A DNA stretch of 64,000 bases from Candidatus Omnitrophota bacterium (lineage in GTDB: Bacteria > Omnitrophota > Gorgyraeia > JAHJTE01). Positions within the stretch are counted from its first letter, which is position 1. The number at the start of each line of letters is the position of its first letter. The translations under genes and the position numbers were made by a program. The notes beneath the pieces are model-generated. The model saw only the letters and a list, made by a program, of their open reading frames with translations. It made no database searches and was not told the DNA's origin. Shown here piece after piece: positions 40,691-56,568 of the stretch. The stretch spans positions 135,674 through 199,673 of the forward strand of contig JAHJTE010000003.1 of the NCBI GenBank assembly GCA_018830005.1, given 5' to 3'.

Positions 40691-40718
40691 AGAATACTGA
40701 AAACAGAATACTGAAAAC
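40691..40718. repeat. exact 14-bp tandem duplication (agaatactgaaaac x2) upstream of xis
   Basis: Direct reading. Confidence 0.7.
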
Positions 40719-40729
40719 ACGATTTGCTA

Positions 40730-41140: not shown

Positions 41141-41413
41141 CTAAATCAAAAGCTCCTCCTCCTTAAGAACCAACCTCGAAACCTCCCTGAACTCCGCCTG
41201 CTCAGCCAACCCAACCAGCTCAGCCTTCAGAAGCTCCTGCTCCCACCCCGTGAGAACCGCACATACACCGTATGACGCCAGGACACCCTGCAAATCATCC
41301 AAGACATCCTCAACATCAAACCAGACATCAAACTGCCTCACATACTCCACGACACGATACACCAGCCACGAACCAGACTCACTGACAACTTTGTCTTTAC
41401 ACATATCGAACAC
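41141..41413 (-). CDS. hypothetical protein
   Basis: ORF. Confidence 0.3.
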   Translation of the reverse strand: MFDMCKDKVVSESGSWLVYRVVEYVRQFDVWFDVEDVLDDLQGVLASYGVCAVLTGWEQELLKAELVGLAEQAEFREVSRLVLKEEELLI

Positions 41414-41616
41414 CTCCGAATTTCTTTTTTATAGCGCCAGCTATTAGAAAAAAGAAATGGAGGACACCCAACCAAACAAAAGCCACCACAAACTATGTAA
41501 TGTTTTAGACGGCCCCTAAGGGAAAAGGTTTAGGAACGGATTTTGCGAACGAGCAAAAGCCTCCATAAACCTTTAGGCGTGAAAAAAACACAAGAAATCA
41601 GACACAGAAAAAAAGA

Positions 41617-41811
41617 TTAAAACAGAAAAGAAAAATACTCCTGCATCTCACCCAGAAGCTGCTTTCCCTGCTCACTTTCAAATTCAACAAACTCAATCTC
41701 TTTCCGTTCATAATCCACTTTCCTAAACTGCATAAGCACAGCATCAACAGTGAAACCCCTAAAAGTCGGCAACTGAAACGGAACATTTTGTAACATCCTC
41801 AACACCTCCAA
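41617..41811 (-). CDS. hypothetical protein
   Basis: ORF. Confidence 0.25.
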   Translation of the reverse strand: MEVLRMLQNVPFQLPTFRGFTVDAVLMQFRKVDYERKEIEFVEFESEQGKQLLGEMQEYFSFLF

Positions 41812-41829
41812 GCAAAAAAAGAGGGGGAT

Positions 41830-42177
41830 TCACCCCTCAACATCACCGTCCTGCTCTCCCTCCTTCAGCACCAAGTACTCAAACGCCTTCTCGAGAACAA
41901 GAACAGCCTTGGGCAAATCATTCACTCCTAAAGAACTCGAACTCTGCCAATCACCATTGTTATCCTTGTAACGCCTCTGCAACGTCACAGAACAATACTC
42001 AACATCTTTGCCCTTAATGTTCCTGGCATTCTTCCAGACAGTAGCACTTATAGCTCCTGTGCTAAACTTCTTCTCAGGCTTGTTTCCATCTCCCATTTTC
42101 ATAAACTCCATTCCAGCTCTTCTAAACGAGAGCAAGAATTTTATTTCTGCCAAGAAATAATAAAATTCGTGCGACAA
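41830..42177 (-). CDS. hypothetical protein
   Basis: ORF. Confidence 0.3.
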   Translation of the reverse strand: MSHEFYYFLAEIKFLLSFRRAGMEFMKMGDGNKPEKKFSTGAISATVWKNARNIKGKDVEYCSVTLQRRYKDNNGDWQSSSSLGVNDLPKAVLVLEKAFEYLVLKEGEQDGDVEG

Positions 42178-42220
42178 AACTTAAAAAGGAAAAAATAATT
42201 AGAAAAAAGGAATAAGGCAA

Positions 42221-42514
42221 TCAGTACCGGGAATAATACCGTTTATCTGACAGAAGCTTCTTCTCAACACTGCCAACACCTTCAGCTTGGCGGGAACCGG
42301 CCTTGCACTCATCAATAATCTTATCAATAGTGTCGCCCCTCAAGTCAGCCAAGCTAGTGTTCGGCAGCCGAAGACACATCTCCTCAGATATTGAATACGT
42401 CTGCCTCGCATAAACGATACCGCTACCATAAGAACTACTGGAATCGCCAACAGGAATCCTCCTGATGCGAGTAACTTTCTTCTTCCGCCACACCCTCAAC
42501 AACGCGTCAGTCAT
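42221..42514 (-). CDS. hypothetical protein
   Basis: ORF. Confidence 0.3.
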   Translation of the reverse strand: MTDALLRVWRKKKVTRIRRIPVGDSSSSYGSGIVYARQTYSISEEMCLRLPNTSLADLRGDTIDKIIDECKAGSRQAEGVGSVEKKLLSDKRYYSRY

Positions 42515-42795
42515 CTATAGCCACCTCGATAATCAGGGCCATCATAAAGATTAACAGGAACGTCAGCACACCTCATAGTCTTCTCAGCTTCTTTCCAGGC
42601 ACCTTTCAGCAAACTGTCAAAATAACTGGCAGGATCCCACGCAATCCTATTATCCTCAGACTCCTTCAGCCAAGCATCAAGGTCAACAATATTCCTCAAA
42701 ATGTCATAATCCCCATTAGGAAAAACCCTGGCGTAAACCACGCCAGGCCTTTCCAACTCCTTCACGGAATGTTTTACACAGTCATTAATCCCCAT
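42511..42795 (-). CDS. hypothetical protein
   Basis: ORF, overlaps the previous gene. Confidence 0.3.
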   Translation of the reverse strand: MGINDCVKHSVKELERPGVVYARVFPNGDYDILRNIVDLDAWLKESEDNRIAWDPASYFDSLLKGAWKEAEKTMRCADVPVNLYDGPDYRGGYR

Positions 42796-42910
42796 GGCAC
42801 CAAAAAAACAAGAACATGCTTAAAAAGGTTACGAAAGAAAATCCGAAAGATTTATGCACAAAAACAATAAGCCTTAAATATCCCGCTAGTATTTCAGGAA
42901 ATATTAGAAA

Positions 42911-43324
42911 ATGTATAAGAAAAGCAATTACGGCATAGGATTTTCGCCACTAGAAAAAGCAACCTACAGTGTTGGACTTAGAGCATACGCTCCGGAATTA
43001 CAGAGTCAAGAACTCTTATTTGCTAGAGTCAAGAATCCGCAGGCATACGAGTCAATCCTAGCAAAACACTACAACAAATTTTTGGACTACATAAAAGGCA
43101 TGACAAGATACAACCCAACCAGCAACACGGAAGAGACAAGCACGCTGGAAAAAAACATCACAAACTACCATTCCGACATCAAAGACAAGAAGCAAATAGA
43201 CCCGCGAACTCATTACGCATTCCCCCTCGGCCCAGAAGCAGCAATAATCGTAGACATCGGACTAAACCCAACCGGACTAAAAACAAACAGCCTCGGCAAT
43301 ATAGAACAAATTCGACTTAAATAA
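42911..43324 (+). CDS. hypothetical protein
   Basis: ORF. Confidence 0.3.
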   Translation: MYKKSNYGIGFSPLEKATYSVGLRAYAPELQSQELLFARVKNPQAYESILAKHYNKFLDYIKGMTRYNPTSNTEETSTLEKNITNYHSDIKDKKQIDPRTHYAFPLGPEAAIIVDIGLNPTGLKTNSLGNIEQIRLK

Positions 43325-43448
43325 TAAAGCAAGTTTCTTTTTCTACCCGAAACTGAATTACAAACCCGATTGCGCACTAAGAACGGTCTGGATACCCGCG
43401 AGAAGATGTGGTATCATAATAGCCAAAATATAAAAGTGGACAAAAGAT

Positions 43449-43745
43449 ATGCCTGACTATTACGATAAATATTCATATTTAGAAAAAGCTTTCAAAAACG
43501 ACACTCGCTCATTAGATCTCCTATACGAATTCCACGACAAGTCACTAGACTACTTCAAATGTACACTAAAAACAAAATTCGACTATATCAAAGAACAGGA
43601 ACTCCTTGATAAGATAGAAATATCCATCGGCAACTTGAACGATTATATTCGGCAAACCAACATAGCAATAAAACAGCTGCCAACGCCAAACAAACCCGGC
43701 AAAATAATGCGTTTCACGCAAGAATGTTATCGGCAGGAAGAATAA
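43449..43745 (+). CDS. hypothetical protein
   Basis: ORF. Confidence 0.3.
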   Translation: MPDYYDKYSYLEKAFKNDTRSLDLLYEFHDKSLDYFKCTLKTKFDYIKEQELLDKIEISIGNLNDYIRQTNIAIKQLPTPNKPGKIMRFTQECYRQEE

Positions 43746-43757
43746 AAGGGATTCCGT

Positions 43758-44360
43758 ATGGAAGAATCGCAATACGCTAAAGACTACGAATTTGCTCAAC
43801 ACTGCATAAAAAACAGTGACTTTGATGAATTCTACAAACGCTACAAAGCAAACATAGAAAAAACTATTAAAAAAAGATTGTACGGAGAAATGGCAACCTA
43901 CCTAGAAGACATAAGCCAAGAAATCATAATGTACCTACTCTACAAAGGCGGACTTGGAAAATATCAAGGCAGATCTCGACTAAGTACATGGCTGTTCGTA
44001 GTAGTAAGGGGACGCACCATAGACTTCATCAGAAACATCACGAGACACAAAGAATCATCATATGACCCGGTAGTACTTAATGGCAAAGCAAAAAAAGACA
44101 GGTCAGTAACTCGCAAACTCATAGAAGAAGAAACCACAAGCCTTGTCTGGAAAACACTAAAAGAAATGCGAGATACGTGGAATCTTCAAAAAACGGTATT
44201 TATGGAAAAACACCACCTCGAACGACTCACATATAAACAAATCGGGCAGATGTTCAACATAAAACAGACAACAGTATACAACCACATACTCAAAGCAGAA
44301 GATAAGTTTAGAGAACTGTTTAGCGACCTAAATCCGGATTACGAGGAGGAACAAATATGA
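43758..44360 (+). CDS. sigma-70 family (ECF-type) RNA polymerase sigma factor
   Basis: Region 2 (STWLFVVVRGRTIDFIR). Region 4 HTH (LTYKQIGQMFNIKQTTVYNHILKA). Confidence 0.55.
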   Translation: MEESQYAKDYEFAQHCIKNSDFDEFYKRYKANIEKTIKKRLYGEMATYLEDISQEIIMYLLYKGGLGKYQGRSRLSTWLFVVVRGRTIDFIRNITRHKESSYDPVVLNGKAKKDRSVTRKLIEEETTSLVWKTLKEMRDTWNLQKTVFMEKHHLERLTYKQIGQMFNIKQTTVYNHILKAEDKFRELFSDLNPDYEEEQI

Positions 44361-45070
44361 ATAAATTATGCAAAATAAGCGGGCACCTCATACGATTCTA
44401 CCCCCATCTCCCCGAGAAGCTAATGCAACACATTCACAGCTGTGCGGAATGCAGCGAAAAACTAAAAACAATAAAGCTATTTGCAAAACTGCAAGGAGAC
44501 AAACCAGACTACGCCAAGATAGAAAAAGCACCCACCTGCCCCGATGACAACACCTTCGCAGCACTCCTTGACGGACAACTTCAAGGGAAAGAATTGCAAA
44601 AAATGGAAAGCCACCTCCTCAACTGCGCCCAGTGCTTCCACATAGCCGCAGAATACATCAAAGAACACCAACCAGCAACAGAAACCATAGAGCAACTGCT
44701 GGCAGATGCAGAACCAAGCCTTGAGGCAGCAGCTCTCTTGGACAAAGTTCGCGGGCTAAGCGAAGCATTCATCAACAAGTATTATCCGGCTATGCAGGAA
44801 TGGTTTGATGGCGCATTCGGAGCGATAAGAGAAAGTATCTTGGCAGGAGAACAACTGGCAACAGTTCCAGTAAGGGGAATGGGTTTCTCTCAGAATAAGC
44901 AACAAATAATTGCGAAGACAGTGCTGATAATGCAGGAAGTCCTCAAAGAAGCCAAGCCGGACTGGACACGCGAGCAATACAAGAAATGTATCGAAAAACA
45001 GTGCAAAAAACTCAAGGCCGACAGAAAACTGAAAAACGCTCTACTGGAATATTGTGAGCACCTTAAATAA
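44357..45070 (+). CDS. putative zf-HC2 anti-sigma factor
   Basis: HxxxCxxC motifs (HIHSCAECSEKL, HLLNCAQCFH). Immediately follows the sigma gene and overlaps it. Confidence 0.4.
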   Translation: MNKLCKISGHLIRFYPHLPEKLMQHIHSCAECSEKLKTIKLFAKLQGDKPDYAKIEKAPTCPDDNTFAALLDGQLQGKELQKMESHLLNCAQCFHIAAEYIKEHQPATETIEQLLADAEPSLEAAALLDKVRGLSEAFINKYYPAMQEWFDGAFGAIRESILAGEQLATVPVRGMGFSQNKQQIIAKTVLIMQEVLKEAKPDWTREQYKKCIEKQCKKLKADRKLKNALLEYCEHLK

Positions 45071-45076
45071 AAAACC

Positions 45077-47893
45077 ATGTCTATTTCAGTTGAAACATTC
45101 AACTTCCTTTATTGCACCATTCTTTTCATTTTAATCGCATGGCATGGATTCTCAAAAAAATCCGTAACTATCGACCTTAGCGAATCTTCAATAAGAATTA
45201 TCCTAGCCTATATCGTAACGGGGCTTATAATGACAAGCTCGCTCATAACCATTGCCCATTCCACCTTCATTCTCAACATGCGAATACCCACGAATCACCG
45301 ACTGCTTCTAGCCGCGCTACCATGCCTCATATTAGTTACAACCCTGCTTGTCAGCTTAGTAAGGCTGTCAAAATATCTCAAAAAAATTATACGGACATCC
45401 AAAGATTACGAAGACGCAGAAATAGTTGAAAAAGCCAATGACCTATCCGATGCGATAGGCTTGCCAAAAGCACCAACCATCCTCTTTGCAAAAGAAAAAA
45501 ACCGAACACCCGAAGTCCAATCTTACCCGTTACTCAGGAAAAGCTTTGTGATATTCCCCTCTAACTTACGACAATACATCGAAAGGTTTATGACAAAAGA
45601 AACCGGGATAGAACCCACAGATGCAAATTGGAAAAAACACTATGAAACATTTCGCGATTTTATAATTCTTCACGAGCTATCACACATAAAAAACAAGGAC
45701 ACCAGCTACTGGACACACTCATCGTCGCTTATAACTCAAAGTATCCTCTGGTTTCTGGCGTCTGTGATACTCTCTGCTCACGTATATTTTGGCAAAATAA
45801 ATAAGTTTGGCATCTCACCCCTCACTTCTATATCAGGCATAGCATTACTCTTTTTGCTAACAGCATCATTTAGACGAACAAGGGAATACCTGTCTGACGC
45901 CTCAGCCATGCTCTACCTCTCTTATAGTAAAAGCAACTTGTTGTCCCAAAAAAAGCCGGGCACAAACAAAACGCTAATAGAAACTTTCCTGAATTGGCAC
46001 GAACACCAACCCGAAACAGTAAGCCCTTCCCGCGGACCCGGCTTTTCCTCACTAAACAGGCTGGCACACCCCTCACACAAGAAGCGCTCGGAAGCTATAA
46101 CCAAACAAGAGTATATATCACCCAAAATCCCATACCCGACCAACGAATCAATTATTTTCATAGCAATACTAAATGTCATATTAACATATGCCCTGCTTGA
46201 AGGCATTGGACAATTCTTCACTCATTTCATGCCATTAAAAAGTGTTATCGACGGCTGGGCGGGCTCAACAACCTATATGATAGCCTTCATTACACCACCC
46301 TTATTAAGCGCCATGTTCTTAACCCTCCCAATAAAGAACACCATAAGCCCACTAAATAACATGAATACGTACCTTAAACCAATCGTTGTTAAAACGCTGA
46401 TTTTCACTGCAATCTCAACACTCACATTTATATTTTTAGGAAACACTACAAGAGCAATGGCATCTATTGCTGAATCCCGAGGCCCATATTTCTTCTGGTT
46501 CCTGACATCTTTCAGCGCGCTGACAGTCATAGCTGCCACACTTCTTCTTACATTAATAATATCCTTAGTTAACGAAACAAATCCTGCATCAAAAAAACTT
46601 CTTAAAACGCTATTAGCAGTAACACCCATTGTAATCGCATTCATAGTGGCGCCACCCCTGCTGCTGGGATTTCTTTTCAAACCCAATTATTTCCTTGCAA
46701 TATTCTCATTCGTAATCGCATATGGCATATGGCTACGCATACCTCCCAAGAAAAATATCATCATATGGGATGACCGCTCTTTTTACCCAAAAATATTCAA
46801 CCGCTCGATATGCTGCGAAGCTAAAGGACACGGCATATTATCCAGGCTTCGCTTTGCCGCACTTATAGCCCTTTTCGACTTCAGCATCCCTCTACTTTTA
46901 TGCATACCAATATATTTATTCCTCAACACCATTCTAGACAGCAACACACTCGAATTCACGAGAAACCTAATTAGCGCATCAAGATCATCAGAGCTGTACT
47001 CTTCCAAACAATTTATTATTCTCGCAGTTTTCTTCATAGGTGCTTTTTGGACGCTGTATGCCCGGGAAAAAGACCACATTCCATCCAAGATAGTTAACTG
47101 CTCTGAAATGATAGGCATATCCGAACTCGTCCAACACAAAGATTTCTCAAGAATCTATAAAACAATTCTTGCCAAGACCAAAAACCACTTGGAAAAAAAT
47201 AAATTCGTTGAATTCCCAAACAGCAACTTAGAAACCGCATATATCGCGTTTTGCGCAACAAACATCATCAAGCATGACACACATGAAACATCCCTAATAA
47301 AAGAACAAACGACACATTTCCTGACCTCACTTTACAACAACAAAGGAGGCTTTGGCGCAGCAAAAGGCGGGGAGCCCAGGCTAAGGGAAACATACTACGC
47401 GGTAGAAATAATCAGCGTGCTCCAGACCCTGAAAAGCATCGACAAGGACAAAATATCAGAATGGATAATATCATGCCAGAATATTAATGACGGCAATTTT
47501 GTCACACCGTACTTCGGCCAGCCAAGCATAGAAGAAACATTCTACGCGATTAACACTCTAAACCGTCTTTCATCCCACATCCCAAACTATGAAAAATGCA
47601 AACAATGGCTCCTGACAACATGGCGGAAAAAAGCCGACATCGAAAACACCTTCTACCTGACAAGCGCTCTCCCGCAACTTGAGCCCCAATACATCGAAGA
47701 AATCACAAAAAAATATCTTCACATAAACAATGACCGTTTTTTCCGATTCCGCTACGACAAGGACTTAAGAAAAATACGCATGCACCTGCATATAGCACGC
47801 CAGTGCTATGGGCTTAATTCAGACGAATTCAAGCAGTTAACCAAAAACACAGAAGAAGAAATTGAGAAAATAATAGCGTCGTCCCAATTTTAG
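45077..47893 (+). CDS. polytopic membrane protein: M48/M56-like HExxH peptidase + C-terminal prenyltransferase/terpene-cyclase-type repeats
   Basis: HELSHIKNKD in a membrane context. More than 12 TM. C-terminal repeats GGFGAAKGGEPRLRETYYAVEII and NDGNFVTPYFGQPSIEETFYAINTL. Confidence 0.45.
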   Translation: MSISVETFNFLYCTILFILIAWHGFSKKSVTIDLSESSIRIILAYIVTGLIMTSSLITIAHSTFILNMRIPTNHRLLLAALPCLILVTTLLVSLVRLSKYLKKIIRTSKDYEDAEIVEKANDLSDAIGLPKAPTILFAKEKNRTPEVQSYPLLRKSFVIFPSNLRQYIERFMTKETGIEPTDANWKKHYETFRDFIILHELSHIKNKDTSYWTHSSSLITQSILWFLASVILSAHVYFGKINKFGISPLTSISGIALLFLLTASFRRTREYLSDASAMLYLSYSKSNLLSQKKPGTNKTLIETFLNWHEHQPETVSPSRGPGFSSLNRLAHPSHKKRSEAITKQEYISPKIPYPTNESIIFIAILNVILTYALLEGIGQFFTHFMPLKSVIDGWAGSTTYMIAFITPPLLSAMFLTLPIKNTISPLNNMNTYLKPIVVKTLIFTAISTLTFIFLGNTTRAMASIAESRGPYFFWFLTSFSALTVIAATLLLTLIISLVNETNPASKKLLKTLLAVTPIVIAFIVAPPLLLGFLFKPNYFLAIFSFVIAYGIWLRIPPKKNIIIWDDRSFYPKIFNRSICCEAKGHGILSRLRFAALIALFDFSIPLLLCIPIYLFLNTILDSNTLEFTRNLISASRSSELYSSKQFIILAVFFIGAFWTLYAREKDHIPSKIVNCSEMIGISELVQHKDFSRIYKTILAKTKNHLEKNKFVEFPNSNLETAYIAFCATNIIKHDTHETSLIKEQTTHFLTSLYNNKGGFGAAKGGEPRLRETYYAVEIISVLQTLKSIDKDKISEWIISCQNINDGNFVTPYFGQPSIEETFYAINTLNRLSSHIPNYEKCKQWLLTTWRKKADIENTFYLTSALPQLEPQYIEEITKKYLHINNDRFFRFRYDKDLRKIRMHLHIARQCYGLNSDEFKQLTKNTEEEIEKIIASSQF

Positions 47894-47901
47894 CTGGTGA
47901 A

Positions 47902-48585
47902 TCACAAAAGCGACATTAAATCATTCCTCATAAGCTTGCAAACCTCTATAATCCTGTTAGTAAACCGCAAACGATTATCTTTCACGTAAACAGCTTCTAC
48001 AACAAGATCCTCTGCTGCAGCAATACCAGAAGCCCTAACATCATGCCTATCACACTGATACAAAGAAACTATCCGTTTCTTGTCATAACTGTTTACGGGC
48101 AACGATAAGTGCTCAACACTCTTACCCGCGATGTACTCACGTAAAGCTTTTACTCTAGAATCCCACCGCACTGCTTCATCTTTAGTCAAACGCACAATCC
48201 TTACTTCAAACAAATCAATATCCTTTAGTAATAACTTAATCGCGTCTTCCCCATTACCTTTCCTTATTAATACCGGAATGCGCCTATAAAGAACCACCAT
48301 CTCACCCCAAAGCTTCTTAAAAAGCTTTTTTTCAAAATACAAAGATTTACAACCAGGCTCAGGCTCGTTTTCAGCAAAATGAATATGCGGACTGAAATAG
48401 TGATTAAAATACCTGATAAGTCCTCTAATAAAACTCTCATATTTAAGCTCGAGCAGGAAATCCTTATTCTTGTAACTCCCATCCCACTCCTGAATAAGTA
48501 CCGCTAACTGCTTCTCAACCTTCTCTATAAGCCGCACTTCTTCCGGACTCAACTCGCGTCTCCTGCCAAACCATCCCATATTCAT
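47902..48585 (-). CDS. hypothetical protein
   Basis: 227 aa ORF. Confidence 0.3.
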   Translation of the reverse strand: MNMGWFGRRRELSPEEVRLIEKVEKQLAVLIQEWDGSYKNKDFLLELKYESFIRGLIRYFNHYFSPHIHFAENEPEPGCKSLYFEKKLFKKLWGEMVVLYRRIPVLIRKGNGEDAIKLLLKDIDLFEVRIVRLTKDEAVRWDSRVKALREYIAGKSVEHLSLPVNSYDKKRIVSLYQCDRHDVRASGIAAAEDLVVEAVYVKDNRLRFTNRIIEVCKLMRNDLMSLL

Positions 48586-48928
48586 AACTCCTATATTAAC
48601 AATATATATACTTATCTATCTGATCCCGTATTCCTACAAGTAGGCACACCCTTTGCTATTAGTCGTTCGGAAAGAACTATATTTTCCAAAGTTTCTGATA
48701 AATATTTCTCTCAAAAAAAGCACTTTTCTGGAAAATTTGGCTAATTCAACACGACTAAGGAGTAGAAAAATAAATGTGGAAATTGAAAAAAGTTTGGAAA
48801 ATCTTGCGGAATGATTCGACTATTAGGTGAAGAACAAAAAGTCAAGCTGAAAGGGGGTAAAAATTCTTGGAAAAAAGAGGGTGTTCGATACAACAAATAG
48901 TTGGAACGAAAAAAGAGGAGGTAAAAAT

Positions 48929-49222
48929 ATGTACTGTTCATTTTGCAACTCTTATTCTTGTAAGTGCGATGACGACAAGTTCAGCCCGCTAACCCCGAAT
49001 TATCTTTGGCCTGATAAACCAAAGAGTCACAAAAAAATCTTCGGTGAAACCTTTGATGACCCCGGAAGAAAGATTTTGCACGAGAAGAAACCAATAGAGC
49101 GTGAGCCAGTATTTCCTCCGAAGCCTGATTTGCATTACATGAGACCATTGCACAGACCTCTTGGGATAGATAGCATGCGGTGGCAGATGATGCCCACTCC
49201 CCCAGGGTTCATCAAATTCTAA
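48929..49222 (+). CDS. small Cys-containing hypothetical protein
   Basis: Start MYCSFCNSYSCKCDDD with SD agaggagg. Confidence 0.3.
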   Translation: MYCSFCNSYSCKCDDDKFSPLTPNYLWPDKPKSHKKIFGETFDDPGRKILHEKKPIEREPVFPPKPDLHYMRPLHRPLGIDSMRWQMMPTPPGFIKF

Positions 49223-49328
49223 ACGTAGGATCAACGAAGCATCCAGCAGAAGGAACTACCAATAACCGGTTAGCTAGGGGGGCGCAAGCAGCCCCCCCCA
49301 TTACTTTCTCAAGAAGGAAAAAGAAATC

Positions 49329-49709
49329 ATGAAGGTAATCAATTACACAAATATTAAAGCAGTAGAAAGAATTCTGCGCATCCTAGCAACTGGCGTGGAT
49401 ACCGCAGACCTCGTCGTTTACATCACGTTCCCCAACATCGAAGAGGAAAAATTTAACGGATTGTTCATTGATGATAAGCCGCCTACAATAAAAATATTTA
49501 TGCGCAAAAACAACAACGTCTACTACAAGCCTGCAAAACGCCTGATAGCGATAAGAAACTACTGCCAATTCATTGCATACATATTCCTGCACGAATTCTA
49601 CCATTACGCAGCAAGACTCAAAAACTTTCGCTATGCTAATGAACGCGAAGAAAACCTTGCAGACCAGTACGCCTACGACACACTCAAAAAAGCAGGACTC
49701 ACGCTATAA
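49329..49709 (+). CDS. small HExxH-motif protein (putative zinc metallopeptidase-like)
   Basis: FLHEFYHYAARL. Confidence 0.3.
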   Translation: MKVINYTNIKAVERILRILATGVDTADLVVYITFPNIEEEKFNGLFIDDKPPTIKIFMRKNNNVYYKPAKRLIAIRNYCQFIAYIFLHEFYHYAARLKNFRYANEREENLADQYAYDTLKKAGLTL

Positions 49710-49728
49710 AAACGGGAGAAGTAAGACT

Positions 49729-50148
49729 ATGGAAAAAAATAATGAGCTTGAAAAAATCATGCAGGAATCAATGGGACAGGATCTGAGCGAAAACACAATA
49801 AACACCATTCCTGTAGACGCTTATGTCCAGCAAAACTTCATTGGAAGCTCATTCAGAGACAAAGAAAAAACCGAAGCCGACGGCTCCAGCAACCGCACAC
49901 GAAACTTTTTCATAAAAAAATTTCACTGCGGATGCTACACCGGCACCATCAAGACCTACGGAAGATACTGCGACAACCCCGTGCCACCAGGCAGAAAAAC
50001 GTGGAAAGAACCCTACCACATCCTGTGCGTCAACTGCGCCAAAATCCTCGAATGCGAAGGGTGCGGAAAAACCGGCGACAGGATATGCTTTACCAAGCGC
50101 GGTCAGAAATGGTACTGCCTTGACTGCCTCAGAACGCTAAGACTATAA
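49729..50148 (+). CDS. Cys-rich zinc-binding protein
   Basis: CGCYTG...CVNCAKILECEGCG...CLDC. Confidence 0.3.
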   Translation: MEKNNELEKIMQESMGQDLSENTINTIPVDAYVQQNFIGSSFRDKEKTEADGSSNRTRNFFIKKFHCGCYTGTIKTYGRYCDNPVPPGRKTWKEPYHILCVNCAKILECEGCGKTGDRICFTKRGQKWYCLDCLRTLRL

Positions 50149-50165
50149 GAAAGGAGAAAAAAATT

Positions 50166-52289
50166 GTGAAGGTAAGCCCCAGATTCCAACAAGCGCGGAA
50201 CACAATAGAATTCTTCGGCCTGCAAAACAACGAGGTCATACTTCGCCTTTTCAAAACTTTTGCAAGAAACCAGCGCAACACCACAGCATACCATACGCTA
50301 ATGCGCGCAATCCACAACCACCCTTATGTAATGAACAAACAGATCAGCCAAAGCCCATTCGCCACGCCACCACCCCCCACAACACAGCAAGGCAAAATGC
50401 GCATCGGCTTAGACGAACACAACAGGCCATACCACCTTGAAATAAAAAATTTCACCAAACACCTCCTGATAACAGGAACAACAGGCTTTGGAAAAACATC
50501 ATTTTTCCAAAACACAATGACCTTCCTGCACAAAATGGGAACAAAGTTCTTGGCGATTGACATAAAGAAAGACACGCGCGAACTGCTCCACCGCATTCCA
50601 ATGCTCATCCTGCGCTTCAAAGAAAACACCAACTTCAAACTCAACCCCCTACAGCGACTGCCAGGCGTAAGCCAGATAGAACAGGACGACCTCTTTATCA
50701 GACTGCTCGCAGAAACCACATTCTTGGCTGAAGGCTCCACAAGCCTATTGCTTGACTCTCTCTGCGAACTACGAAACAAAAAAGGCGCCATAACCGTCTT
50801 TGACCTTTACCAATCAATCGAAGAAAAAGGAAAAAAATTCCGCACATTAAGACAGCTGGGATGGCGGGACAGCTGCCTCCGAAGCCTAAAAACACTAGTC
50901 CTATCATTCGGGCCAATGCTAGACTGCGCAGAAGGACTTCCCATCCACCGCATAATCCAAGAACACAACGTCGTAGCAGAGCTTGACTCGGCAGGCTCAT
51001 ACAAAAGCTTCTTCGGCACCCTCCTCCCAGCCTACTACCTGAAATGGAAAATCAGCAACAACATCAAAAGCCCGTTTCACGCAAACTTCTGCGACGAAGG
51101 AAACATGCTGCTAAGCAAAACCATAGAGTTCCACAGCGTCACAAAAAAGCTAAGCATCCTCACACTCATAGAGCTTGGCAGGGAATTCCAAGAATCATGG
51201 TTCATCTCAAGCCAAGAACCAAAAAAGCTGTCAGAAAGCGTGAAGTGCAACACAGCCACAAAAATCCTCCTTCCCCTGGAAGACGGGCCCAGCAGAAATT
51301 ACATGAGCGATACCGTAGGCATGACACAAACACAAACAATACACACAACCCTGTTCGTCACAGGACAGTCAGTCGTAAAACAAGAAGGACAAAAACCACA
51401 CAAAATAACCCTGGACCCCCCTCCTGAAAATGCCGGGCTCACAGAATTCAGCGACCAAGAAGCCGAACAAGAAAGCCAACCCATCATAAACCAGTACCCC
51501 ACAAAAATGAAAAAACAGACAATAACTATCGAGGAATTCAAGCCGGCACAAAAGTGCCCCAGATGCGGAACCGGAGAACTAATAATTAAAGAAGGAAAAT
51601 TTGGAAAATTCATAGCCTGCAATCAGTACCCAAACTGCAAACACACGGAGCAACTCAAAAACGAACAGCCACAAGAACTCACACAACAACAAAAAGAACT
51701 ATTATGGCACATCAAACTACACCCCGAACTTTCCAAAACACAACACTACAAAAGCCTCAATCTCTCAGCCGGAAAAGCAGACAACCTTATGAAAAAAATG
51801 CGTCACCTCGTAAGAGAAATCACCATTCCCACACAACAGCGCGGCAGACAACCAATCCTACTCGCGCTCACCAAACAGGCATGCCAACAGCTCGGCGTAG
51901 AACAGCCTCGCACCAGAGGAGCAGAAATAGAACACGACTTCCACGTAGCCCGCTACGTCGCACAGCTCAAAAAAGCGGGACACAAAGCAGAGCCGAACTT
52001 CAAGCTCAAAGATAAAGAAGCAGACATCGGCATAATGCTCCCCAACGGAGAAATAATCGCAGTAGAAATAAGCACGACAACAACGCCCGAATGGGAAATG
52101 CAACAAGCCATCAAAAACATCAAAGCAGGATTTGACAAAACAATAATCATAAACACCAACCCTGACAAATCTCAGGAGTTTAACATAAAAGCGCAGTTTC
52201 AGCTAAGCCCCGAACAAGAAAGCAAAATAACCATATCGCAGCTGATACCAGACATAACAGAACTGATACGAAAGGAGCAAGAAACGTGA
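50166..52289 (+). CDS. FtsK/HerA-superfamily ATPase fused to topoisomerase-type C4 zinc ribbon and C-terminal nuclease-like domain, paralog 2
   Basis: Walker A LITGTTGFGKTSF. CPRCGTGELIIKEGKFGKFIACNQYPNCKH zinc ribbon. C-terminal EIEHDFHV...DIGIML...AVEIST. GTG start with SD aaggag. Confidence 0.55.
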   Translation: MKVSPRFQQARNTIEFFGLQNNEVILRLFKTFARNQRNTTAYHTLMRAIHNHPYVMNKQISQSPFATPPPPTTQQGKMRIGLDEHNRPYHLEIKNFTKHLLITGTTGFGKTSFFQNTMTFLHKMGTKFLAIDIKKDTRELLHRIPMLILRFKENTNFKLNPLQRLPGVSQIEQDDLFIRLLAETTFLAEGSTSLLLDSLCELRNKKGAITVFDLYQSIEEKGKKFRTLRQLGWRDSCLRSLKTLVLSFGPMLDCAEGLPIHRIIQEHNVVAELDSAGSYKSFFGTLLPAYYLKWKISNNIKSPFHANFCDEGNMLLSKTIEFHSVTKKLSILTLIELGREFQESWFISSQEPKKLSESVKCNTATKILLPLEDGPSRNYMSDTVGMTQTQTIHTTLFVTGQSVVKQEGQKPHKITLDPPPENAGLTEFSDQEAEQESQPIINQYPTKMKKQTITIEEFKPAQKCPRCGTGELIIKEGKFGKFIACNQYPNCKHTEQLKNEQPQELTQQQKELLWHIKLHPELSKTQHYKSLNLSAGKADNLMKKMRHLVREITIPTQQRGRQPILLALTKQACQQLGVEQPRTRGAEIEHDFHVARYVAQLKKAGHKAEPNFKLKDKEADIGIMLPNGEIIAVEISTTTTPEWEMQQAIKNIKAGFDKTIIINTNPDKSQEFNIKAQFQLSPEQESKITISQLIPDITELIRKEQET

Positions 52290-52558
52290 TAGATGACAAA
52301 AAATTACAGGACGAGCTGCTCGAACTGCTGACAGAACAGCAAATACCAGAAGAACTCAGATCCCACCCGCCACCATATGACTGGAAAAGCCTTCTCCGTC
52401 CCCTGGGAAAATTTGTGCTGGTAATCATCGGTATCTGCGCAGCCCCTTTTGTGGCGTCAATCATCATAGCAATAGTAACGCTCTGCCCCGTCATAGTTCC
52501 AATCTGGATACTGATGTACATTGCACAACAAAAAACCAATCCCACCAACAGGAGATAA
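52286..52558 (+). CDS. small membrane protein
   Basis: GTG start overlapping the previous stop (GTGA). 2 TM. Confidence 0.3.
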   Translation: MIDDKKLQDELLELLTEQQIPEELRSHPPPYDWKSLLRPLGKFVLVIIGICAAPFVASIIIAIVTLCPVIVPIWILMYIAQQKTNPTNRR

Positions 52559-52565
52559 AAAAATC

Positions 52566-53396
52566 ATGGAAGAAACTGAAGGAATGGAAAACATGGAAAC
52601 ACCTGAAGAAATGGAAGGCATTGAAGAAGCAGAAAACATCTCCCTTGATGCAACAAAAGAAGCTGACGAACTTATCGAACAGTCAATGCAGGAAGGCATC
52701 TCCGAATTCAGCGCGGACGCAACAAAAGATACCATAGCTAATATTATGCACGAAGAAGGAATTCCGGAAGAAAAAATTGAAGCACTAACAGAAAAAGGAC
52801 ACGAGCTGCTCAGCAAAGAACCAGCAAAACACGAGGTCTCTGAAGAAAAAGAAATACAAGGACTAAAACAAACCTCTGGCCGTGAAGGATCGCCAAAGCC
52901 ATACAACTATCCATCAGAACCCGGGAAAAAAGCTCAGCACAACATTCCTTATCCTTTTGGCAAGAACACAGAAGAAATCAGCCAAAGAGAACGGCTTGAA
53001 GCCATGAAAGAAGGGCTTGAAGAATTCCTAGAAACACCCCACAAGACACCACATCAGGAAGAAGCGGTAATTGAAAAACTGGAAGAAATACAACAGCAAC
53101 TAAGCGGGCTGCCACCAGACCCGCCAGAACCAGAAGAGCCAGAAATTGAAGACGTAACAGACAAACAAGCACAAGCTGAAGGATGGCAAGACGCAAGAGA
53201 AAGAAAAACATGGCTGGACGGCACAGAAAGCGTAAAACAAATACCTAAAAACGTATACAAACCCGCCAAGCTCAATACCATCAAAGGCATGTACAGCCAA
53301 GGCTTAGAAAACAAAGGTAAAGTGGGATATGACGGATTCGGAGAACTAATGGACGACCTAGACGACACAATAAATGACATGGGAACAATGTTCTAA
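52566..53396 (+). CDS. highly acidic Glu-rich protein (candidate DNA mimic)
   Basis: MEETEGMENMETPEEMEGIEE... SD aggag. Confidence 0.35.
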   Translation: MEETEGMENMETPEEMEGIEEAENISLDATKEADELIEQSMQEGISEFSADATKDTIANIMHEEGIPEEKIEALTEKGHELLSKEPAKHEVSEEKEIQGLKQTSGREGSPKPYNYPSEPGKKAQHNIPYPFGKNTEEISQRERLEAMKEGLEEFLETPHKTPHQEEAVIEKLEEIQQQLSGLPPDPPEPEEPEIEDVTDKQAQAEGWQDARERKTWLDGTESVKQIPKNVYKPAKLNTIKGMYSQGLENKGKVGYDGFGELMDDLDDTINDMGTMF

Positions 53397-53430
53397 TAAT
53401 TTTCAACACTTAAACAATAAGGAGGACGTT

Positions 53431-53685
53431 ATGGCAAAACCACAAAAGCTGACAGAAGCAGAACAAGAACTGGTAGTATTTCTTGCAAATTGTCCCGAAC
53501 CTGAGTCTATACACGGCATAGCCGACATTTACCACCTATCGACAGAACAAACGTTAAACATGCTTGCAAGATTAAGTAAGAGTTTGCGGATTTACAGAAA
53601 TAAAAAGCTCGAAATCAGTCTTGCAATTGACCCTGACGCAATCACGAATCAAGAAAACGAAATACCAACAGACGAAACTCTATAA
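53431..53685 (+). CDS. small hypothetical protein
   Basis: SD aaggagg. Confidence 0.3.
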   Translation: MAKPQKLTEAEQELVVFLANCPEPESIHGIADIYHLSTEQTLNMLARLSKSLRIYRNKKLEISLAIDPDAITNQENEIPTDETL

Positions 53686-53714
53686 ATCCAAAACCGAAAA
53701 AAGGGGCCGGAACA

Positions 53715-53900
53715 GTGAAGAAAGCAGTAAGCAAAAAATGCAGAAGCAGAAAAATGAAGCTTCACAGCTTCACGTGGGAACTTCTGCCTCCCGGCACCCT
53801 CAAACGAGATAAATCAAAACACCAAAAGCCCGAAGAACGATGGAACGAAATACAAGCCATAGGCAGCCAGATAATAGCCGAAAGCAAAGAAACTAATTGA
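53715..53900 (+). CDS. small basic hypothetical protein
   Basis: ORF. Confidence 0.25.
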   Translation: MKKAVSKKCRSRKMKLHSFTWELLPPGTLKRDKSKHQKPEERWNEIQAIGSQIIAESKETN

Positions 53901-53953
53901 CAAAATGTCTTATTTGGACTACCATATGATACAGTTAATAACAGGAAAGAATT

Positions 53954-55606
53954 ATGAAAGACAAAAAGTGCGCCCTATATATTCGAGTTTCTACCCCCCG
54001 CCAGGCAAGCGTTGAAGACGGCAGCCTCGACGCCCAGGAATCCAAGCTAAAAGCCTACGTCAACTACGAAAACACATCCAAACAAGACAAGTGGAAAATA
54101 AGCGGAACCTACCGAGAAGAAGGACGCAGTGCCAAAGACCTCAAGCGCCCACAATTCCAGCGCATGATGCAAGACATCAACGACGGCAAAATAAACACCA
54201 TAGTCGTCTGGAAAATCGACAGGCTCACCCGCAGCCTCAAAGACTTCTCCAACCTATGGGAAACATTCAAAGACCAAGGCATACAACTCATCAGCCTAAA
54301 CGAAAAATTCGACACAAGCACAGCAATCGGCAGAGCAATGCTCACCATCATCCTCGTCTTCGCTCAACTCGAACGCGAGCAAACCGGAGAAAGAACCTCA
54401 GCCACAATGCAATACCGCGCAGAACAAGGACTCTGGAACGGAGGCAGAATACTCGGCTACGACCTTGATAAAGAAAAAAAGGGCGTGCTCAAAATCAACA
54501 AAGAACAATCCAAACTGATAAACAAAGCTTTCGAGCTATGCATGCAAAAAGGCAGCGCAGGCCAAACCCAACAAATACTTAACGAACTCGGCCACAGAAT
54601 GCCAACATACGAATCACGCAGAGGCAAAAAACACGGCAATACCCTCTTCACAAAACAAGCAGTAATAAGACTTCTGACAAACTCCGCCTATATTGGAAAA
54701 ATCAGTTGGGCCGGCAAACTATACAAAGGAATACAGAAGCCCATCATAGATGCAAAAACATTCGATAAAGTCCAGACAATACTAGGAAAGAACCGTAAAA
54801 CAAGAACCAATGAAAGAGCACCCAAGCAACACGTCTACATCCTCCAGGGCATTCTCAAGTGCGGCAAGTGCGGCTCAATGCTCACTCCAAAAAGCGGCAA
54901 GAACGGCTCCGGACAGCCATACCATTATTATCAATGCACCCAGAACAGCCACATAGGAAAACAAGCGTGCAAAGCCAAATATGTTCCTGCTAAAAGCATT
55001 GAAGACTTTGTTCTCGAAAGAGTCCGCGAGCTGTCAACCAAGCAAGAAGAAATTGACGCAATGATAGAAAGGGCTAGCAAGGCAGGAAACAAACAGATAA
55101 CCCAGCTTGAGGAGAATAAAAAAAGGCTTCTGGCAAAACTTCAAGAAGTCAAAGGCAGGCTCGGAAAGATAGTGGACGCCATAGAGGCCGGACAGGCATT
55201 CAGAACATTCTCTGAACGCGTCAAAACTCTTGAAGAAGAACGCGAAAGCCTAGAAAAAAAGATAGAAGAAACTTCTTTCGAAATAGAAAAAGCCAGTCAG
55301 GAAATACTGAGCGCAGAAACAATGAAGCAAAACTTCCAACAGCTCAGGGACGTAATAGATAAAGCTAATCCTCAGCAACTGAAAGACCTGCTCTACAACA
55401 TCATAGAAGTCATCGAATACCACGAATCAACAGACGACAAATCAACAGGACACCTCAAAATAAGCTACTTCGAACAACCCAACCTCACCATACCCGACCC
55501 CAAAAATACAAAGAGCGAACAACACCCAAATGGGGCATTGTTCGCTCAGAGTATCAAATGGCTCCCCCGCGAGGACTCGAACCTCGGACATGGTGGTTAC
55601 AAGTGA
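53954..55606 (+). CDS. large serine recombinase (resolvase-domain integrase)
   Basis: N-terminal resolvase catalytic domain (YIRVSTPRQ...VWKIDRLTRS). Recombinase domain and zinc ribbon (CGKCGSML...YYQC). Coiled coil. The 3' end overlaps the tRNA 3' exon. Confidence 0.8.
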   Translation: MKDKKCALYIRVSTPRQASVEDGSLDAQESKLKAYVNYENTSKQDKWKISGTYREEGRSAKDLKRPQFQRMMQDINDGKINTIVVWKIDRLTRSLKDFSNLWETFKDQGIQLISLNEKFDTSTAIGRAMLTIILVFAQLEREQTGERTSATMQYRAEQGLWNGGRILGYDLDKEKKGVLKINKEQSKLINKAFELCMQKGSAGQTQQILNELGHRMPTYESRRGKKHGNTLFTKQAVIRLLTNSAYIGKISWAGKLYKGIQKPIIDAKTFDKVQTILGKNRKTRTNERAPKQHVYILQGILKCGKCGSMLTPKSGKNGSGQPYHYYQCTQNSHIGKQACKAKYVPAKSIEDFVLERVRELSTKQEEIDAMIERASKAGNKQITQLEENKKRLLAKLQEVKGRLGKIVDAIEAGQAFRTFSERVKTLEEERESLEKKIEETSFEIEKASQEILSAETMKQNFQQLRDVIDKANPQQLKDLLYNIIEVIEYHESTDDKSTGHLKISYFEQPNLTIPDPKNTKSEQHPNGALFAQSIKWLPREDSNLGHGGYK

Positions 55607-55886
55607 CCCGAAATTACTTTCGGACTTGGACTATATCATTGCCCTCGACTTTACGTTAGGGCAGCGGGTATATAGTCTCTGCACATTTAGGCTCGGCTCT
55701 TTAGCCTCGCACACTTAGCTCAGGATTATCCTTGGTTTTGAGGACTTCCCTGAATTAGCCCGCTTTGTCAACTGCGGTTTCCCGCAGAAGCTGCGCTTTC
55801 TAAATCCCTTGGCTTTACCTCAGGATGTTCATCCGGCTTTGACGGACTCGCACAGCCACCCGCTCTACCAACTGAGCTACAGGGGA
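55559..55886 (-). tRNA. tRNA-Asn(GUU) interrupted by a group I intron; exons 55852-55886 and 55559-55599
   Basis: The reverse complement gives UCCCCUG UA GCUC AGUUGGUA GAGC G GGUGG CUGU|intron|UAA CCACC AUGUC CGAGG UUCGAGU CCUCG CGGGGGA G CCA. Spliced length is 76 nt. The body closely resembles E. coli tRNA-Asn (U1-A72, G73). Confidence 0.8.
55600..55851 (-). ncRNA. group I intron (252 nt) in tRNA anticodon loop
   Basis: Carries the conserved group I elements. P is UGCGGGAAA. Q/P4 is AAUCCUGAGCUAAG. R is GUGCAGAGACUA. S is AUGAUAUAGUCCAAG. CCCUAACGUAAAGUCGAGGG is also present. Very similar to cyanobacterial tRNA-Leu introns. Ends in G, and the 5' exon ends in U. Confidence 0.8.
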
Positions 55887-55977
55887 ATTTTATTCATCAT
55901 TCATATTTAGTATTTCGCTTTAAAAGAACGTTCTACTATTTTATCTGAATGCCCTATTTAGTCAAGAAGAAACCTTC

Positions 55978-56568
55978 TTAGTAGCCGCGGGAGATAATAT
56001 ACAGACGTTCTAAGATAAAACGTATATTATCAAGTGTTATATCCTCTCTTATCCTGTAATTAGGCTTGCTGATGGAAAATTCTTTCTTTGCCCTTAACTG
56101 AGTAAAGCCCCTTGAAAATATATCCCTTATTGCCTGCTTTACTTCTAGTCTGCTCAAGATACTTAAAACCGTGCCTTTATTTTTAGATATGCATAAAAAC
56201 TCTTTATCAAAATCCGGATCACGAGTCTTTATAGCCTGAACCATGCCAAACTTCTTACCAAAACGCATCAGGGATGATTCTTTGCGAATAATAAGATTAA
56301 AGGATGGCCTTTTGTAAAAATAAACATACAAATATGGGGGGCTATGACGACTTGCAGGAATAAGCCAAAGCTTAAAATTTACGCCATTAAATTTCCCTTT
56401 TAAGGTAACCACGGGAAAAATCGAAATTTTACCCGAAAACTCCTTAGCTAAAGACTGTAATATCTTCGACTTCTTCTTACCGGAAGCAAACGCAACGACA
56501 ATCAAAACTACCGCTATGAGCAAAAATGGTAAGAATTCAAAAATAAGATGCATTATTTTCTCATCCAT
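55978..56568 (-). CDS. hypothetical membrane-anchored protein
   Basis: N-terminal TM. Confidence 0.3.
   Translation of the reverse strand: MDEKIMHLIFEFLPFLLIAVVLIVVAFASGKKKSKILQSLAKEFSGKISIFPVVTLKGKFNGVNFKLWLIPASRHSPPYLYVYFYKRPSFNLIIRKESSLMRFGKKFGMVQAIKTRDPDFDKEFLCISKNKGTVLSILSRLEVKQAIRDIFSRGFTQLRAKKEFSISKPNYRIREDITLDNIRFILERLYIISRGY

Follow-up and report, generated by a model that had tools for sequence, protein, structure and literature searches.

A tRNA-Asn gene from an Omnitrophota bacterium with a predicted group I intron and a serine-integrase attachment site

Introduction

In a preprint, Williams (2020; bioRxiv 10.1101/2020.01.27.920355) expands the intron-interrupted classes of bacterial tRNA from the classical four to 21. 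According to Nakagawa and colleagues (2026, mSystems; PMC13011429), these classes include, as "Asn.4Ug", tRNA-Asn with an insertion between positions 35 and 36. Nakagawa and colleagues also reported that one Asn intron and one Asp intron, from Patescibacteria, splice themselves in vitro exactly at 35/36, and they counted 28 introns at 35/36 in 4,934 complete genomes (19 in Patescibacteria, 3 in Cyanobacteriota, 3 in Nitrospirota, and 1 in each of three other phyla), 25 of which they classed as subgroup IA. Here we describe a tRNA-Asn(GUU) gene from a Candidatus Omnitrophota bacterium (assembly GCA_018830005.1). The gene lies in a stretch of 64,000 nucleotides, which we call the window (positions 135,674 to 199,673 of contig JAHJTE010000003.1). 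We propose, with a probability of roughly 0.87, that this host gene is interrupted by a self-splicing group I intron of the Asn 35/36 class and that, separately, a serine-integrase element has recombined with the last 9 bp of the gene.

Among the rows listed in Table S5 of the survey by Nakagawa and colleagues, the only one for Omnitrophota is an fMet intron at 33/34 of subgroup IC3, and our literature search turned up nothing specific on introns in this phylum. The window intron adds a new, structurally variant member to a class that is already known and has experimental support, in a lineage where that class was uncatalogued. A first-pass annotation of the window, made from the letters alone, had considered a tRNA-Asn host to be unusual. 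That view reflects only the four classical hosts and does not hold, as the class was listed in 2020, was spliced in vitro in 2026, and is present in 63 other species (see below).

Serine integrases have seldom been linked to tRNA genes. Mageeney and colleagues (2020, Nucleic Acids Research; PMC7192596) predicted computationally that 14 of 297 serine-integrase elements target genes for tRNA or tmRNA, and they described the use of tRNA genes by serine integrases as previously unreported and needing experimental proof. Our literature search found nothing specific on serine integrases at tRNA-Asn.

A tRNA-Asn gene with an intron between positions 35 and 36

In its default mode, the tRNA finder ARAGORN made zero tRNA calls across the 64-kb window. 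When introns were allowed, it reported a tRNA-Asn(gtt) of 76 nucleotides (nt) with a 252-nt intron at 35/36, exactly at 55559-55886. The parts of the gene are as follows (all positions are those of the window):

55886-55559, minus strand: tRNA-Asn(GUU), whole gene (from intron-allowing ARAGORN and Rfam)
55852-55886, minus strand: 5' exon, tRNA positions 1-35, 35 nt, ending in GGCUGU, which includes G34 and U35 of the anticodon (from ARAGORN with introns)
55600-55851, minus strand: group I intron, 252 nt, with GCGAG at the start and CACUUG at the end (from RF00028, ARAGORN, and covariation)
55559-55599, minus strand: 3' exon, from U36 to the encoded CCA end, 41 nt, UAACCACC...GGGGGAGCCA (from ARAGORN with introns)
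55938-55965, minus strand: promoter-like site, TTGACT, a 16-nt spacer, and TAAAAT, about 50 nt upstream of the tRNA (from consensus match)

In DNA letters of the minus strand, the full sequence of the 5' exon is TCCCCTGTAGCTCAGTTGGTAGAGCGGGTGGCTGT and that of the 3' exon is TAACCACCATGTCCGAGGTTCGAGTCCTCGCGGGGGAGCCA. When the exons are joined, they give a canonical cloverleaf (as drawn by ARAGORN), and the spliced 76-mer is identical at 74 of 76 positions to the intron-less tRNA-Asn(GTT) genes of two metagenome loci (L086 and L092). Of the junctions that the anticodon loop would allow, 35/36 is the only one with a U in front of the 5' splice site as well as a G as the last base of the intron. 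(This terminal G, or omega-G, is position 55600.) Furthermore, the group I intron model of Rfam (Intron_gpI, RF00028) matches 55812-55607 on the minus strand at 84 bits, well above the gathering score of 50 (E = 6.4e-20), and over the full length of the model; this is the sole Rfam match in the window. The identity of the tRNA, the group I type, the length of the intron, and its position between 35 and 36 had all been read from the sequence in the first-pass annotation, and these analyses bear them out. The promoter-like site matches the consensus at 10 of 12 positions, although shuffled sequence yields about one such match too.

Secondary structure of the intron

We aligned 21 short introns, built a model of helices P1 to P9 from the window sequence and the Rfam alignment, and counted the pairs in each column. 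The elements of this model are listed below. (Intron nucleotide n is window position 55852-n.)

55789-55794, minus strand: internal guide sequence GCAGCU, intron nt 58-63, which pairs with the exon sequence GGCUGU to form P1
55797-55849, minus strand: insertion in the P1 loop, intron nt 3-55, drawn as two extra hairpins (from the clade alignment)
55772-55787, minus strand: P2 hairpin, intron nt 65-80, with a GAAA tetraloop; 6 of 6 pairs change on both sides
55663-55764, minus strand: P3 (nt 88-93 with 184-189), which encloses P4, P5, P6/P6a, and the 5' strand of P7 (from covariation)
within this segment, minus strand: P4, nt 98-103 with 128-133; P5, nt 107-111 with 120-124; P6/P6a, nt 134-168; 5' strand of P7, nt 173-179
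55628-55633, minus strand: 3' strand of P7, UAGUCC, intron nt 219-224
55641-55662, minus strand: P8, intron nt 190-211, with the motif CCUAA...GAGGG; 6 of 7 pairs change on both sides
55607-55624, minus strand: P9 hairpin, intron nt 228-245, with a GUAA tetraloop; 5 of 7 pairs change on both sides

Across the 21 introns, 87.1% of the cells in the model hold standard pairs, as compared to 33-46% if the 3' partners are slid by 1-3 columns. Both sides change in 39 of the 58 pairs, and in none of five measures did any of 500 shuffles reach the observed value. Compensatory changes support P2, P3 (both sides change in 4 of 6 pairs), P4 (4 of 6), P5 (3 of 5), P8, and P9; P2 is paired in 96% of its cells and P9 in 94.6%. 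P1 and P7 are instead nearly invariant. The last five bases of the 5' exon, GCUGU, pair with the internal guide sequence, and the CUGU/GCAG pairs of P1, including the wobble between U(-1) and G58, are the same in 21 of 21 introns, as are 5 of the 6 pairs of P7 (AGAGACUA with UAGUCC). We take G175-C223, with A174 bulged, to be the analogue of the guanosine-binding pair in the P7 of Tetrahymena. The CCUAA...GAGGG motif of P8 appears to resemble a tetraloop receptor.

Two features distinguish the window intron from many of its relatives. Its P1 loop has about 50 extra nucleotides, as compared to 5-10 nt in the P1 loops of most relatives. In the clade alignment, comparable hairpin insertions are present in L060, L046, L050, L001, and L078; these hairpins were drawn by reading the sequences, without statistics. 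Also, the window intron lacks P7.1 and P7.2: CAGAGACTATA directly adjoins ACCCGCT, which is the 3' strand of P3. In L009, L022, L028, L054, L015, L053, and the published copies from Nitrospirota, an extra segment is present at this point, after P7 (5' strand) and before P3 (3' strand), which reads as P7.1/P7.2. It is about 40-50 nt long in relatives such as L009, L022, L015, and the Nitrospirota copies.

By analogy with the validated member of the Asn 35/36 class, we infer that the window intron is self-splicing. In the mechanism that we propose, a precursor transcript of about 330 nt would start from the promoter-like site (55965-55938), and the exon sequence GGCUGU would pair with the guide GCAGCU to form P1, which would set the U35-G58 wobble at the 5' splice site. 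The core helices P3-P9 would then fold, with GNRA tetraloops on P2 and P9 and the receptor-like motif in P8. A free guanosine held in P7 would attack after U35, which is the first step of the standard two-step guanosine mechanism. Finally, the terminal G252 would occupy the guanosine site, the exons would be joined, and the anticodon loop CUGUUAA would be restored.

Relationship to described tRNA introns

We compared the core of the window intron (from the guide sequence to the terminal G) to the sequences in the supplement of PMC13011429, and computed z scores relative to shuffles. The core is 71% identical to the Asn intron of the Nitrospirota genome GCF_900169565.1, which is labelled as IA1 (z = 12.2), and 66% identical to the IC3 intron in tRNA-Leu of Nostoc PCC 7120 (z = 8.0), with near identity through P7-P8-P7'. 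Thus, the likeness to cyanobacterial tRNA-Leu introns that the first-pass annotation had pointed to is real, but the closest kin of the window intron are other tRNA-Asn introns. We also aligned the full-length intron to the validated Asn intron from Patescibacteria (GCA_016700035.1), which gave a global score of 121.5; shuffled sequences had a mean of 91 and a standard deviation of 7.

With the Asn 35/36 class, the window intron shares its host tRNA, its insertion site, the U before the 5' splice site, the G at the end of the intron, the guide GCAGC, a P2 hairpin with a GNRA loop, the core CAGAGACTA ... GATATAGTCC, and the P9 hairpin, as well as a host gene that is overlooked by default tRNA finders. 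It differs from that class in its P1-loop insertion, in lacking an open reading frame (ORF) for a homing endonuclease, and in lacking P7.1/P7.2, whereas 25 of the 28 published introns were classed as subgroup IA. Subgroup IA is recognized by P7.1/P7.2, located after the 5' strand of P7 and before P3', and this segment is missing from the window intron. With the IC3 introns in the tRNA-Leu(UAA) of cyanobacteria and the tRNA-Ile of Azoarcus, it shares a length of about 200-250 nt, a location in the anticodon loop of a bacterial tRNA, the absence of P5abc and of P7.1/P7.2, and tetraloops on P2 and P9. The host tRNA, the guide sequence, and the insertion site are different (34/35 for Leu and 36/37 for Ile2 and Arg), and the window intron is closer to the Asn class; its apparent agreement with IC3 consists of the pairwise similarity and the set of helices only. 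Overall, it looks like a member of the Asn 35/36 lineage that is without P7.1/P7.2.

Distribution of the Asn 35/36 class

We scanned one genome per GTDB species for a pattern that combines the 3' exon of tRNA-Asn with the conserved strand of P7 (TCGAACCNNNGACATNNNNNTTAN{15,45}GACTNTNTC). Because this pattern is narrow, the counts that follow are lower bounds. The pattern matched 82 loci, and in 63 other species representatives, we could reconstruct both exons and the junction (CTGT/intron...G/TAA); all of these introns end in G. By their record titles, 27 of the 63 loci are from Omnitrophota, 23 are from the candidate phyla radiation (Patescibacteria), 5 are from Planctomycetes, 5 are from Pseudomonadales or Gammaproteobacteria, and 3 are from other bacteria. 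The Pseudomonadales/Gammaproteobacteria titles are doubtful, as these sequences are nearly identical to loci from Collierbacteria. For example, the tRNA-Asn and intron of L006 and L008 ("uncultured Pseudomonadales") are almost identical to those of L017 and L026 (Collierbacteria), which suggests that those assemblies were mis-binned or mislabelled.

The introns at the scan loci range from 183 to 618 nt, and of the 15 loci that we tested against Rfam, 13 passed the gathering score at the 35/36 site. The nearest relatives of the window copy are L046 (84% identical over the tRNA and the intron), L060, L033, L031, and L001, all of which are labelled as Omnitrophota. At many of the Omnitrophota-labelled loci, a match to dnaX, and sometimes to recR, lies within a few kb of the tRNA. 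Judging from the labels of these relatives, the window itself probably belongs to Omnitrophota.

Five loci were excluded. L007 (Nocardia), L012, and L065 are chance matches to the DNA pattern. L041 and L042 have an uninterrupted CTGT-TAA loop, with a second copy of the 3' half further downstream: in L041 (at about 1640-2100), the repeated 3' half (TAACCAGCATGTCC...) lies 364 nt beyond an intron-less tRNA-Asn. Long direct repeats such as this one typically accompany islands that were inserted by tyrosine integrases.

We also noticed a second type of intron sequence at 35/36, in L010, L013, L019, L048, L061, L062, L063, L070, and L079. Introns of this type mostly start with TCACGAG and end with ...GTCAG followed by ATCG, ATTG, ATAG, or AGCG, and where scored, they were above the Rfam threshold (76 bits for L013 and 79 bits for L048). 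At 17 loci, the intron is longer than 500 nt and appears to carry an ORF (for example, at about 4700-4900 of L048). The ORF in the intron of L048 reads ...CEQCSYDRCVEALEFHH...CANCHRELH and, by eye, resembles the HNH homing endonucleases that have been reported in tRNA-Asn introns of Patescibacteria.

The attachment site at the 3' end of the gene

The gene lies at one end of an insertion, which we identified by finding an empty site. By exact-protein lookup of the neighbouring host genes (RecR and ORF196), we found contig JBDRIX010000016.1 of assembly GCA_043815545.1 (L165). (An exact-sequence lookup with the Memo-AMMECR1 neighbour gave no match, probably because of a differing start call.) Positions 2569-11013 of L165 align to 64000-55556 of the window with 1 mismatch in 8,445 bp (99.99% identity), and positions 10988-13815 align to 12605-9778 with 99.9% identity. 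L165 joins window position 55556 straight to 12605, without the 42,976 bp in between. Since L165 matches both flanks and lacks the insert, it is an empty site from the same species, and the window carries a 42,976-bp insertion. The relevant features are:

12592-55558, no strand assigned: integrated element, 42,976 bp from core to core (absent from L165)
53954-55606, plus strand: ORF for a large serine recombinase (integrase), 550 amino acids (from Pfam)
55559-55567, no strand assigned: attL crossover core, TGGCTCCCC on the plus strand, or GGGGAGCCA in the sense of the tRNA, tRNA positions 68-76 (from comparison to L165)
12583-12591, no strand assigned: attR crossover core, the same 9 bp, from which host DNA resumes leftward on the plus strand (from comparison to L165)
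55513-55547, minus strand: terminator-like hairpin and T run directly after the tRNA, in element DNA and antisense to the end of the integrase ORF

The integrase matches three Pfam domains: Resolvase (3e-39), Recombinase (8e-13), and Zn_ribbon_recom (5e-15). Its ORF runs antisense across the whole 3' exon of the tRNA, which corresponds to the last 16 codons, and its stop codon lies within the final 7 nt of the intron.

The 9 bp of GGGGAGCCA are the only sequence common to attL and attR. In the sense of the tRNA, attB is ...GGTTCGAGTCCTCGCG GGGGAGCCA CTTCAAACGGAGCCCC...; attL has the same left arm and continues as GGGGAGCCA TTTGATACTCTGAGCGAAC...; and attR is ...TTGTTCGCTTCGAGTCTCGCTC GGGGAGCCA CTTCAAACGG... 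The attP site reconstructed from these (about 52 bp) is symmetric at 16 of 25 positions around a centre inside the core (GGGG/AGCCA), with arms TTGTTCGCTTCGAGT and ACTCTGAGCGAACAA. This dyad layout is what would be expected of a serine integrase, and crossover presumably occurs at the GA dinucleotide in the centre. Host DNA makes up the whole of the tRNA and its intron, and the element replaces only what follows the CCA: in L165, a different terminator-like hairpin is present after the CCA. In our reconstruction, the 42,976-bp element would have recombined with the last 9 bp of the tRNA-Asn gene and brought its own terminator-like hairpin with it. The empty site and the 9-bp core substantiate the earlier proposal, from the first-pass annotation, that the 3' end of this tRNA is the attachment site of a serine integrase. 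From the adjacency of the serine integrase at 53954-55606, the length of the core, the symmetry of attP, and the recurrence that is described in the next section, we infer that this protein catalyzed the insertion.

We made two observations about the reading frame of the integrase. In the window and in L015, L009, L027, L062, L029, and L024, the integrase ORF has no stop before the core and continues in one conserved antisense frame into the tRNA, with the shared read-through tail ...WLPREDSNLGHGGY. This tail is probably not functional, because in a related element (described below), what follows the core in the attP forms is a short tail that shows no conservation; for the same reason, we rejected the idea that the tail acts as an excision switch. 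Also, in the reconstructed circle, the integrase ORF (53954-55567) runs in frame for 118 codons into the ORF at 12565-12984 on the plus strand, which contains a ParB-HTH domain (Pfam, 1.7e-12), to give an ORF of 668 amino acids. This fusion in the circular form is probably due to chance.

A clade of serine integrases recurs at the 3' ends of tRNA genes

At 14 of the 82 scan loci, a homologous serine integrase converges on the 3' end of the tRNA, and in the window and 6 of those 14 loci, the ORF extends into the tRNA in a shared frame. For an unbiased test, we trimmed the tRNA-derived tail from five integrases, aligned them, and searched metagenome contigs. This gave 80 loci with 30-71% identity. 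At about 49 of the roughly 70 loci that could be assessed, the integrase gene is directly followed by the 3' end of a convergent tRNA gene. The targets are mostly tRNA-Asn (about 32 without an intron and 6-7 with one), along with 3 for Arg(TCT), 2 for Arg(GCG), 1 for Gln, 1 for Asp, and a few of uncertain type. This recurrence agrees with the first-pass description of the gene as an integration hotspot. Because most of the homologous integrases adjoin intron-less tRNA-Asn genes, we conclude that the clade targets the 3' ends of tRNAs independently of the intron, and we rejected the idea that integration is linked to the intron. About 40 nt separate the intron from the integration site, and the two are independent features.

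Five metagenome contigs (L107, L108, L109, L110, and L123) carry a single related element at more than 99.4% identity. In L107 and L108 the element adjoins two different tRNA-Asn genes, in L109, L110, and L123 it adjoins non-tRNA DNA, and the divergence begins at the same TGGCTCCCC core every time (at about 4603-4613). The three contigs without a tRNA read as the attP form, with arms ACCAATC and GATTGGT. This element is natural evidence of recent mobility across hosts.

Like the large serine integrases of the Bxb1, phiC31, and A118 type, the window integrase has the combination of Resolvase, Recombinase, and zinc-ribbon domains; a short core (9 bp here) that is centred in a dyad-symmetric attP of about 50 bp; a gene at the end of its element; and a target gene that is restored after integration. 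It differs from them in that its target is the extreme 3' end of a tRNA gene; in that its ORF does not have its own stop before the core and continues into whatever DNA adjoins; and in that its clade is spread over uncultivated lineages, mostly at tRNA-Asn.

Alternative explanations

Several aspects of the locus weigh against the interpretation that we favour: pairing of a P10 with the 3' exon is not evident in the window intron; folding might be slowed or impaired by the P1-loop insertion, which only a few close relatives share; and the element also encodes a tyrosine integrase (27881-29359). An insertion of about 50 nt in the P1 loop is unusual and, given that default ARAGORN does not recognize the tRNA and that our view is limited to 64 kb, this gene might be a tRNA pseudogene or its intron might be inactive, with tRNA-Asn supplied by an intron-less gene elsewhere in the genome. 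We consider this very unlikely: the window copy has every position that is invariant across the 21 introns (which follows from how the alignment was constructed), the helices of the intron covary, the exons form a canonical cloverleaf that is nearly identical to intron-less tRNA-Asn, and the tRNA and intron are within the 8,445-bp stretch that has a single base difference between the occupied and empty variants. A working gene might also be spliced elsewhere in the anticodon loop, such as at 33/34, so that the mature RNA would be tRNA-Thr(UGU) or another isoacceptor. Intron-allowing ARAGORN does label many of the homologous loci as Thr, Asp, or others, with shifted junctions, and the same ambiguity has been documented for ARAGORN and tFind (PMC13011429). 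However, a preceding U and a terminal G occur together only at 35/36, the invariant P1 sets its U-G wobble at U35, the 35/36 product matches intron-less tRNA-Asn at 74 of 76 positions, and sequencing of a homologue by reverse transcription PCR confirmed 35/36 (PMC13011429), so a shifted junction is hardly credible.

As to the ancestry of the intron, it could be of the IC3 type, from the cyanobacterial tRNA-Leu lineage, and have moved into tRNA-Asn from outside of the mostly IA-labelled Asn 35/36 lineage. The absence of P7.1/P7.2 between P7 and the 3' strand of P3, the GNRA loops on P2 and P9, and the similarity to the Nostoc intron (with P7-P8-P7' nearly identical) would all fit with this origin, but it seems unlikely, as the Nitrospirota Asn 35/36 intron labelled IA1 is closer, with the guide, P2, P3, and P4 matching almost base for base. 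Furthermore, relatives with and without a segment at the position of P7.1/P7.2 share the insertion site, the guide sequence, and P9, which fits the gain or loss of P7.1/P7.2 within a single lineage. Turning to the element, the tyrosine integrase of the Phage_integrase family, or homologous recombination, might have inserted the 43-kb segment, with the serine recombinase as a passenger; indeed, tRNA genes are used by 44.5% of tyrosine integrases and by 4.9% of serine integrases (PMC7192596). We view this as most improbable, because some 15 kb lie between the tyrosine integrase gene and attR, and 26 kb between it and attL, while the serine integrase ORF overlaps attL, the common core is just 9 bp and is centred in an attP of about 52 bp with dyad symmetry, dozens of unrelated contigs have a homologous serine integrase at the same position of the tRNA, and the related element was caught in both attP and attL forms that break at the same core. 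Our preferred explanation therefore remains a host tRNA-Asn gene with a self-splicing intron, next to an element that was inserted by its serine integrase.

Content of the 43-kb element

The left end of the element carries the ORF with the ParB-HTH domain, and the right end carries the serine integrase; we identified no directionality factor for excision. According to Pfam, the cargo of the element includes DndE-HerA, an SMC-like ATPase, Mrr_N, a type I specificity subunit, an N6_Mtase/Eco57I-like enzyme, and a MORC-like HATPase. From these domain matches, we would class them as defence-type or restriction-modification genes. Besides the tyrosine integrase, there are two genes with matches to FtsK/HerA/TrwB-like ATPases, and the element may be composite or hold a nested element. 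A sigma-70-like gene is followed by an ORF with zf-HC2, which is possibly an extracytoplasmic function (ECF) sigma factor with its anti-sigma factor. We also noticed that the element's blocks of plus-strand genes (18000-30000 and 40000-56000 of the window) have an excess of A over T on the plus strand, with an AT skew of 0.2-0.44, which is much above that of the flanking host DNA.

Motifs that resemble the end of tRNA-Asn between 408 and 12582

To the left of the element, the window contains a short repeat of the end of the gene and several copies of a motif that resembles it:

408-425, minus strand: 18-nt copy of the 3' end of tRNA-Asn (GAGTCCTCGCGGGGGAGC), followed by TTGATTTCC and a terminator-like hairpin; an exact repeat of 55561-55578 (E = 3e-4)
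3013-3047, 4871-4905, 5641-5675, about 6860-6893, 11456-11464, and 11549-11583, minus strand: copies of the motif GTTGCGAAAnTCGTCCAATAGGGGGAG (about 27 nt, similar to the 3' end of tRNA-Asn)
1663 and 2344 of L046, 707 of L060, and 7572 of L079: copies of this motif at other loci

The 18-nt copy is 55 kb from the gene. We rejected the possibility that it and 55561-55578 bound a 55-kb island, since the comparison to L165 sets the end of the element at 12583-12591; thus the serine-integrase element is not bounded by this copy. A remnant of the same type is present in L046 at about 1025-1043, roughly 230 nt downstream of the tRNA-Asn of that locus. The copy at 408-425 is probably an older remnant, the original 3' end that was displaced by an earlier integration. 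A search with a 29-mer of the 3' end of the tRNA, allowing 3 mismatches, found no second copy; the gene itself was the sole match.

The motif GTTGCGAAAnTCGTCCAATAGGGGGAG lies just 3' of minus-strand genes or small groups of genes, and next to it comes CCA or AAAATTC, in most cases with a terminator-like hairpin after that. Every copy is in the orientation of tRNA-Asn and downstream of it, with no integrase gene nearby, and the motif was absent from 12.6-64 kb of the window and from about 160 other loci. The cargo between the motifs differs by genome: it includes arsenic-resistance and radical-SAM genes in the window, and two small ORFs that look, by eye, like a toxin-antitoxin pair in L046. 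The ordinary explanation is that repeated integrations left the motifs behind as scars, or that they form a terminator module specific to the lineage. A rather improbable alternative is that the region from 408 to 12582 and its equivalents in L046, L060, and L079 are arrays of integrase-less cassettes, which were captured and stacked at the end of tRNA-Asn by tRNA-Asn-specific serine integrases acting in trans. If so, the array would be an integron-like system that is built on a tRNA gene and a serine recombinase.

Discussion

For the use of the final 9 bp of tRNA genes by a clade of large serine integrases, this locus provides clean evidence from nature, of two types: occupied and empty sites within one species, and the attP and attL forms of a related element. 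As the target is conserved across phyla, such integrases could serve as broad-host-range tools for integration.

The Asn 35/36 class of introns is common outside of Patescibacteria, with at least 27 Omnitrophota-labelled species representatives, while the published survey of complete genomes called it rare there. Because the gene escapes tRNA finders in their default mode, a genome of this sort would be counted as having no tRNA-Asn, and such missed, intron-split tRNA-Asn genes distort estimates of genome completeness. Finally, copies with and without P7.1/P7.2 at a single site are a natural series for studying how the subgroups of group I introns interconvert.

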